NCBI RefSeq assembly: GCF_003334355.1
Contig: NZ_QOWP01000007.1
Source: Escherichia coli
Lineage (GTDB): Bacteria > Pseudomonadota > Gammaproteobacteria > Enterobacterales > Enterobacteriaceae
Strand: one strand, 5' to 3'
DNA: 64,000 bases
Shown here: piece by piece, positions 62,426 to 62,530 of the stretch
Layout of the letters: each line of letters starts with the position of its first letter
Numbering within the stretch: the stretch's first letter is position 1
Position numbers and translations under genes: made by a program
Notes under the pieces: generated by a model
The model's input: the letters and a program-made list of their open reading frames with translations, nothing else
What the model was told of the DNA's origin: nothing
The model's database searches: none

Positions 62426-62530
62426 ACGGTTATAAATCAACATATTGATTTATAAGCATGGAAATCCCCTGAGTGAAACAACGAATTGCTGTGTGTAGTC
62501 TTTGCCCATCTCCCACGATGGGCTTTTTTT
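62426..62530 (+). ncRNA. rprA: Small regulatory RNA RprA (about 105 nt)
   Basis: Sequence ACGGTTATAAATCAACATATTGATTTATAAGCATGGAAATCCCCTGAGTGAAACAACGAATTGCTGTGTGTAGTCTTTGCCCATCTCCCACGATGGGCTTTTTTT matches recalled RprA, including terminal hairpin and T-run. Confidence 0.85.

Follow-up and report, generated by a model that had tools for sequence, protein, structure and literature searches.

The Escherichia coli ydiK-ydiL interval carries rprA, the gene of the Hfq-dependent small RNA RprA, with a 3' module that also occurs on phages, prophages and plasmids

The element at positions 62426 to 62531 (+) of the window (i.e., the whole 64,000-nt stretch of Escherichia coli DNA that was analyzed) was identified as rprA, the gene encoding the Hfq-dependent trans-acting small RNA (sRNA) RprA, with a probability that we put at about 98%. 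This identity is supported because four independent lines agree: the sequence itself, the position given by RefSeq, the presence of an RcsB box, and a promoter, structure and synteny that extend across the Enterobacterales. RprA is a textbook sRNA that is already represented in RefSeq and Rfam, and the gene found here adds nothing new to it.

The whole window was scanned against Rfam 15 at gathering thresholds. By this approach, the RprA family (RF00034) was matched at 62426 to 62533 (+) with 118.5 bits compared to a gathering score of 70 (E = 1.6e-16), and the match covered model positions 1 to 108 of 108 with zero non-canonical pairs. The initial annotation had recognized an RprA sRNA at 62426 to 62530, where the DNA reads ACGGUUAUAAAUCAACAUAUUGAUUUAUAAGCAUGGAAAUCCCCUGAGUGAAACAACGAAUUGCUGUGUGUAGUCUUUGCCCAUCUCCCACGAUGGGCUUUUUUU, and had looked to an Rfam search as the check on this call; the match found is full length and well above the gathering score and, together with 100% identity to the MG1655 gene, bears the call out. 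In MG1655, rprA (b4431) is located at 1770372 to 1770477, and it is identical to the window in 106/106 nt. Over the surrounding 2.5 kb, MG1655 and the window differ by 21 substitutions, none of which falls within 62061 to 62544. Thus, promoter, gene and terminator are all those of the K-12 allele, which is carried here by a host strain that is not K-12. A primary transcript of approximately 105 to 106 nt at 62426 to 62531 (+) is indicated by the Rfam match, the identity to b4431 and the RefSeq feature. The start first proposed for the element, 62426, coincides with the annotated +1, whereas its proposed end, 62530, was slightly short, falling 1 nt before the end of the MG1655 annotation (62531, 106 nt) and 3 nt before the Rfam and PGAP end (62533).

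RefSeq annotation also placed the element. The rprA feature in one 100%-identical RefSeq record maps exactly onto 62426 to 62533 of the window, and the location between ydiK and ydiL, likewise part of the initial annotation, was confirmed by RefSeq and by the flanking open reading frames (ORFs). Upstream context is provided by ydiK (61128 to 62240, +), a RefSeq gene with a 370-aa ORF for an AI-2E family transporter that lies outside the sRNA, and downstream context by the RefSeq gene ydiL (62669 to 63025, +). When a 501-nt query around the element was compared to 5,426 complete E. coli genomes, a match was found in 5,424, with ydiK, rprA and ydiL as its features, and the ydiK-rprA-ydiL junction was unmatched in 2. 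The junction query also returned 31 places beyond one per record, including 3 on plasmids; PLSDB 'plasmid' records of 4 to 5 Mb are in some cases evidently chromosomes.

An RcsB box, TGAGACGAATCTGA, was detected by pattern search at 62377 to 62390 (+), corresponding to -49 to -36 relative to the RprA +1. The box fits the RcsB homodimer consensus TN(G/A)GAN4TC(T/C)NA that was defined from RcsB-DNA crystal structures, and the Salmonella PrprA oligonucleotide co-crystallized with RcsB has the same box sequence (PMC7913699). The pattern had 3 matches in the window compared to 2 expected and is not significant alone; the weight given to the box comes instead from its position and its conservation across species. 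A core promoter read from the sequence spans 62391 to 62419 (+), in which the box abuts a weak, poor -35-like hexamer (TCGACG, 62391 to 62396) that is followed, after a 17-nt spacer, by the -10 TACTAT (62414 to 62419), beginning 23 nt past the box and lying 6 nt before +1. This promoter was not reported by a generic sigma-70 scan, for which the only pair of sites was at 62286 to 62315 and unrelated to +1, a result that is expected since the promoter is activator-dependent with a poor -35; its identification relied on the box and the conserved spacing.

Among the species loci listed, an RcsB box was found ahead of the RprA core in 113/116, compared to a chance expectation of 0.003 per locus. 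Of these 113 loci, 99 had a gap of 23 nt from box to TANNNT, 11 had one of 24 nt and 1 had one of 22 nt; TACTAT was the most frequent -10 hexamer among the species loci listed. The 3 of the 116 loci listed at which the box was unmatched are the second Phytobacter copy and two loci from Edwardsiella. In Edwardsiella ictaluri (L031) and E. hoshinae (L053), the core is located downstream of ydiK and the 200 nt upstream contain no RcsB-box match; no other syntenic locus among the 116 listed lacks one. Judged by its conserved RcsB box, -10 and intrinsic terminator, the element is an independent transcription unit. An RcsB-dependent triphosphate 5' end at the rprA +1 has already been published for K-12.

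The most serious alternative is that the element is no independent gene and forms only the 3' UTR and terminator of ydiK, or else serves ydiL as leader or attenuator. Such an arrangement would agree with its location on the same strand as both neighbors, 186 nt past the ydiK stop codon and 138 nt ahead of the ydiL start, and with the failure of the generic sigma-70 scan to report a promoter directly upstream. By contrast, the element has an RcsB box of its own, at a rigid distance of 23 nt from the -10, that is conserved in 113/116 species loci listed, ydiK has its own hairpin after it at 62246 to 62271, and a strong terminator ends the RNA ahead of ydiL. Moreover, ydiL is missing at 110 of the 120 RprA-bearing species loci listed, and thus the element is no ydiL leader. 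We consider this explanation very improbable. Assignment to the class of 3' UTR-derived sRNAs was similarly rejected, since the element has its own conserved promoter of RcsB box and -10. The hairpin of ydiK is a GC-rich inverted repeat, TCATCAGGCGGCTCTGCCGCCTGATTG, at 62246 to 62271 (+), positioned directly after the stop codon and without a T-run; it is likely a ydiK 3' end or stabilizer hairpin that is separate from rprA.

The RNA encoded by rprA was predicted by both MFE and centroid folds to form a 5' hairpin (nt 3 to 32), an open central region and a terminator hairpin, with a fold energy of -25.8 kcal/mol (z = -2.3 compared to shuffles). The 5' stem-loop corresponds to 62428 to 62457 (+). 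The central pairing region, AGCAUGGAAAUCCCCUGAGUGAAACAACG (RprA nt ~30 to 58; 62455 to 62483, +), is mostly single-stranded and is unpaired in the centroid fold. It is followed by the 3' module, which consists of AAUUGCUGUGUGUAGUCUUU and the terminator (62484 to 62530, +). These last 47 nt, AAUUGCUGUGUGUAGUCUUUGCCCAUCUCCCACGAUGGGCUUUUUUU, correspond to the processed form RprAproc, which is reported to occur alongside the full-length RNA and to be still active in regulation (PMC9262595). In a terminator scan of 62200 to 62700, 1 site was detected compared to 0.4 in shuffles. This intrinsic terminator (62504 to 62531, +) is composed of a 7-bp GC-rich hairpin at 62504 to 62523 (GCCCATC-TCCCAC-GATGGGC, a stem with 5 G-C pairs) and T8 at 62524 to 62531. 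The earlier description of an element of roughly 105 nt with a terminal GC hairpin and T-run thus agrees with both the terminator scan and the Rfam match.

Structural conservation was examined in an alignment of 70 non-identical full-length homologues chosen by the motif CCCCTGAG; the invariance of CCCCTGAG across the 70 aligned sequences reflects sequences that were themselves selected for having it. RNAalifold recovered the 5' hairpin and the terminator from these homologues, and when the E. coli MFE structure was applied to them, 92.5% of cells were found to be paired. In the lower helix of the 5' stem-loop, 6/9 pairs changed on both sides with 87.5% of cells paired. Every homologue retained the terminator hairpin, in which stem positions 5 and 6 showed compensatory changes and 99.8% of cells were paired. 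Changes on both sides were detected for 9 pairs compared to 3.1±1.2 in column shuffles, 0/500 shuffles reached any of five measures, and pairing dropped to 31 to 44% when the 3' partners were slid by 1 to 3 columns. Taken together, these results revealed compensatory base changes in both the 5' hairpin and the terminator. A short stem inside the core displayed no variation among the homologues and is uninformative, because it is invariant and partly fixed by the search pattern. A GG/CC mini-stem in the center of RprA was unsupported in the pair counts on the 70 homologues.

These data also bear on whether the region encodes a small protein. The element, which the initial annotation called invisible to the ORF track, is overlapped by no ORF of at least 60 aa. 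Two shorter ones exist mechanically and overlap it, a 49-aa ORF at 62473 to 62622 (+) and a 58-aa ORF at 62430 to 62606 (-). The plus-strand ORF, however, has a GTG start inside the RNA and continues past the terminator into DNA that lacks conservation between species, indels of 1, 2 and 4 nt fall within both ORFs in the 70-homologue alignment, conservation tracks base pairs and not codons, and no CDS is annotated by RefSeq at either position. The class of small-protein genes was rejected based on the frame-breaking indels, the base-pair conservation and the extension of the ORFs into non-conserved sequence, and a coding function is exceedingly improbable. That the element is a decayed or non-functional copy, RprA-like by descent only, is a reading for which no support was found; it is scarcely credible, as promoter, gene and terminator all match the functional K-12 allele without a difference and the rprA locus is the single syntenic one.

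Other non-coding elements were detected in the window. STnc550 (RF02081) had a full-length Rfam match at 29506 to 29896 (-) with 396.5 bits and is another non-coding RNA or leader element that protein-only annotation misses. The rydB sRNA (RF00118) was matched in full length at 56762 to 56822 (-) with 81.6 bits, and an RcsB-box-like sequence, TAAGAATAATCTCA, is located 3 nt past the rydB 5' end at 56825 to 56838 (+). The latter is probably a chance match, since the RcsB pattern gives 3 matches in the window compared to 2 expected. Two tandem tRNA-Val(GAC) genes were found at 38488 to 38645 (+), the second of which is overlapped on the opposite strand by a 110-bit Rfam match to HPnc0260, a Helicobacter antisense RNA family, at 38607 to 38769 (-). 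The match looks like a tRNA-driven artefact of the HPnc0260 family and not like a real member, because its best-aligned part is tRNA antisense.

Conservation of rprA was analyzed by use of a 20-nt core, TGCTGTGTGTAGTCTTTGCC (RprA nt 62 to 81; window 62487 to 62506), which was found to be exact in at least 120 species-representative genomes distributed among the Enterobacteriaceae, Erwiniaceae, Pectobacteriaceae, Yersiniaceae, Hafniaceae and Morganellaceae. A YdiK homologue was encoded upstream on the same strand at 107 of the 120 species loci listed. For 11 of the 13 loci without ydiK, the sequence extends less than ~350 nt upstream; the remaining 2, L048 and L102, are second copies. By comparison, ydiL adjoins rprA in only 10/120 species loci listed, from Escherichia and Citrobacter. 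Terminator stems were found to vary, by A-U, G-C, U-A, C-G and G-U exchanges, across 119 3'-module sequences (from chromosomal copies, together with L048 and L102 as second copies), nearly all of which fold at approximately -9 to -13 kcal/mol, with two weaker.

Erwinia amylovora RprA and other orthologues outside the Enterobacteriaceae are similar to the window rprA in the Rcs box beside the -35, in ydiK synteny and in the conserved 3' end, but diverge from E. coli RprA in the 5' and central regions. The sequence CCCCUGAG was absent from 47 of the 118 loci that were long enough to score among those listed. When 12 syntenic distant loci were compared to Rfam, 3 (Yersinia, Dickeya and Providencia) scored 70.1 to 88.9 bits and 9 were below the gathering score. 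On this comparative evidence, the RcsB box and the fixed 23 nt between it and the -10, together with linkage to ydiK and the 47-nt 3' module, appear as ancestral parts that are conserved order-wide (~115 species), and the rpoS-pairing center and 5' hairpin appear as lineage-specific. That the 3' end is conserved and the 5' end variable has already been published, as has the Rcs box in Erwinia (PMC7814967).

The likely mode of action of RprA is taken from the literature on the identical K-12 gene. Envelope stress would be relayed via the phosphorelay of RcsC/RcsD/RcsB, and phospho-RcsB on the box would turn rprA on. RprA together with Hfq would then use its central region for pairing to the upstream arm of the rpoS leader's inhibitory hairpin, which would open the ribosome-binding site and increase sigma-S. 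Pairing with the csgD, dgcM (ydaM), hdeD and narP mRNAs would result in repression, pairing with ricI in Salmonella would result in activation, and processing by RNase E would generate a 47-nt 3' species in which some of the regulatory activity is retained. Rcs control of RprA and rpoS activation have been described, and rprA knockouts were found to barely change RpoS levels (PMC4152358); thus, rpoS activation may not be the main physiological role of RprA. Among the other targets, csgD is repressed via RprA nt 28 to 45 (anti-site II) and 60 to 97 and ydaM/dgcM via nt 45 to 75 (PMC3465796), translation of hdeD is repressed via a seed hairpin at nt 31 (PMC5861431), and narP is repressed directly via nt 30 to 70 and indirectly via the last 47 nt, with ricI activated by RprA in Salmonella (PMC9262595). 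The csgD anti-site II, the narP site and the hdeD seed hairpin map to the central pairing region of RprA.

Pairing of RprA with the rpoS leader was also predicted computationally. With RprA nt 31 to 78 as the query, the best predicted duplex was between RprA nt 32 to 72 and rpoS -135 to -93, upstream of the ribosome-binding site, at -32.4 kcal/mol. This duplex was no better than chance, as 184/500 dinucleotide shuffles were as good on the 597-nt leader. Analysis of full-length RprA and the rpoS leader by RNAduplex gave an all-over duplex that was equaled by 42/300 shuffles. Since the computed duplex is no better than shuffles, rpoS pairing rests on the published genetics, by which it is established (PMC4152358).

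DsrA and ArcZ belong to the same functional class as RprA in that they raise rpoS translation via the 5' leader in an Hfq-dependent manner (PMC4152358). These two sRNAs differ from RprA, however, in that they are unrelated in sequence, are encoded at other loci and respond to other signals, with RprA controlled by the Rcs phosphorelay. Beyond the role in common with DsrA and ArcZ, RprA represses csgD, dgcM, hdeD and narP. DsrA is under low-temperature control and ArcZ under ArcAB control. Majdalani et al. are said to have found in 2002 that one arm of the rpoS inhibitory hairpin is the pairing site of both RprA and DsrA.

The 3' module of RprA (62484 to 62530) was also detected outside rprA, at the related loci L124-L126, L127-L246 and L247-L250. 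BLAST analysis of the 108-nt RNA revealed partial matches (from nt ~52/60 to 104/107) in 17 GenBank phage records, with the phage carriers including ~42 kb Escherichia phages, N4-like Erwinia phages (Ea9-2) and N4-like Salmonella phages. The module was likewise found on plasmids of ~44 to 99 kb from Enterobacter, Citrobacter, Klebsiella and Pantoea, one of which (88 kb) has P1-type lpa and pacA, and the exact 20-mer core was present in at least 120 IMG/VR viral contigs. Among the 120 viral loci listed, YdiK was encoded at none and an RcsB-box match was found upstream at only 5. Among the viral loci listed, 91 distinct sequence contexts were distinguished, and the sequences upstream belong to at least seven unrelated families. 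A GC hairpin and T-run, with stems that differ, come after the core in every viral family, and the 5' arm of the hairpin was paired in the MFE structure at 102 of 119 viral loci listed. When a 50-nt module query was used, 6,065 places were found in 5,424 E. coli genomes, ~640 beyond one per genome, with up to 3 copies per genome and with 27 places on plasmids. Carriers in E. coli also comprise EHEC strains, with a C11-type copy, and phage vB_EcoM-606R2.

In layout, the phage, prophage and plasmid copies resemble the 47-nt processed RprA, with an identical core of 20 to 24 nt, (A)AUUGCUGUGUGUAGUCUUUGCC, followed by a GC hairpin and U-run. The mobile copies differ from rprA in that ydiK is not nearby, an RcsB box is almost never present, the 5' parts are unrelated and the terminator stems are different. 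Unlike rprA, these copies are located in immunity or early regions of phages. The module of E. coli ES1 is between a CI-like repressor gene and an early DUF2800/DUF2815/DNA-polymerase operon, and in two other viral families a CI/LexA-like repressor (phrog_4) is encoded upstream of the module, with both on the same strand. Divergent prophage copies have kept the core with the upstream sequence replaced, and in one lineage the core carries a single U-to-C change. With the Rfam RprA model, the ES1 prophage copy (L247) scored 50.2 bits, below the gathering score of 70, and Rfam at gathering threshold returned no family for the module on 14 phage and plasmid loci. A literature search by wording and by sequence found no description of the module outside rprA.

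Second, partial copies of RprA were also observed in chromosomal sequences. Phytobacter massiliensis has two copies on one contig, ~8 kb apart (L047:875-894 and L048:1238-1257). The second copy keeps RprA nt ~37 to 105 (77.8 bits with Rfam), is without an RcsB box and ydiK, and adjoins a C4 antisense RNA and a phage-type repressor. In a Citrobacter sp. MAG, the second copy (L102) has prophage-type upstream sequence that is the same as in one viral family (L130/L138). Both second copies fit the picture of a mobile 3' module. The Phytobacter duplicate could alternatively have arisen from integration via the core as an attP segment; its two copies are 8 kb apart, but no integrase was found between them. 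Use of the phage core as an attP identity segment for integration into rprA was rejected for the E. coli ES1 prophage, where the module is no attachment site because the integrase and the chromosome junction (beside yfhL) are ~10 kb away. For N4-like phages and P1-like plasmids, neither of which is known to integrate, general considerations make the attP reading implausible.

As judged from the shared core and hairpin, mobile elements may encode RNAs that share the seed and the Hfq/terminator module of processed RprA, with UGUGUGUAGUC as the putative seed in a phage copy of the 3' module. We tentatively suggest that the 47-nt 3' module is a mobile functional unit and that phages, prophages and P1-like plasmids might express mimics of RprA(proc), which would target a portion of the RprA regulon of the host in the absence of any Rcs signal, a proposal that we hold to be possible but rather doubtful.

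A protein-only annotation would miss rprA, a real and conserved regulator that standard pipelines such as PGAP already annotate. RprA ties envelope stress (Rcs) to the RpoS general stress response, to curli and biofilm formation (csgD, dgcM), to acid resistance (hdeD) and to nitrate respiration (narP). If the phage-borne copies are expressed sRNAs, mobile elements would be copying the seed of a host sRNA, and such seed mimicry, if true, would be the mimic counterpart of the phage anti-sRNAs already known from EHEC.
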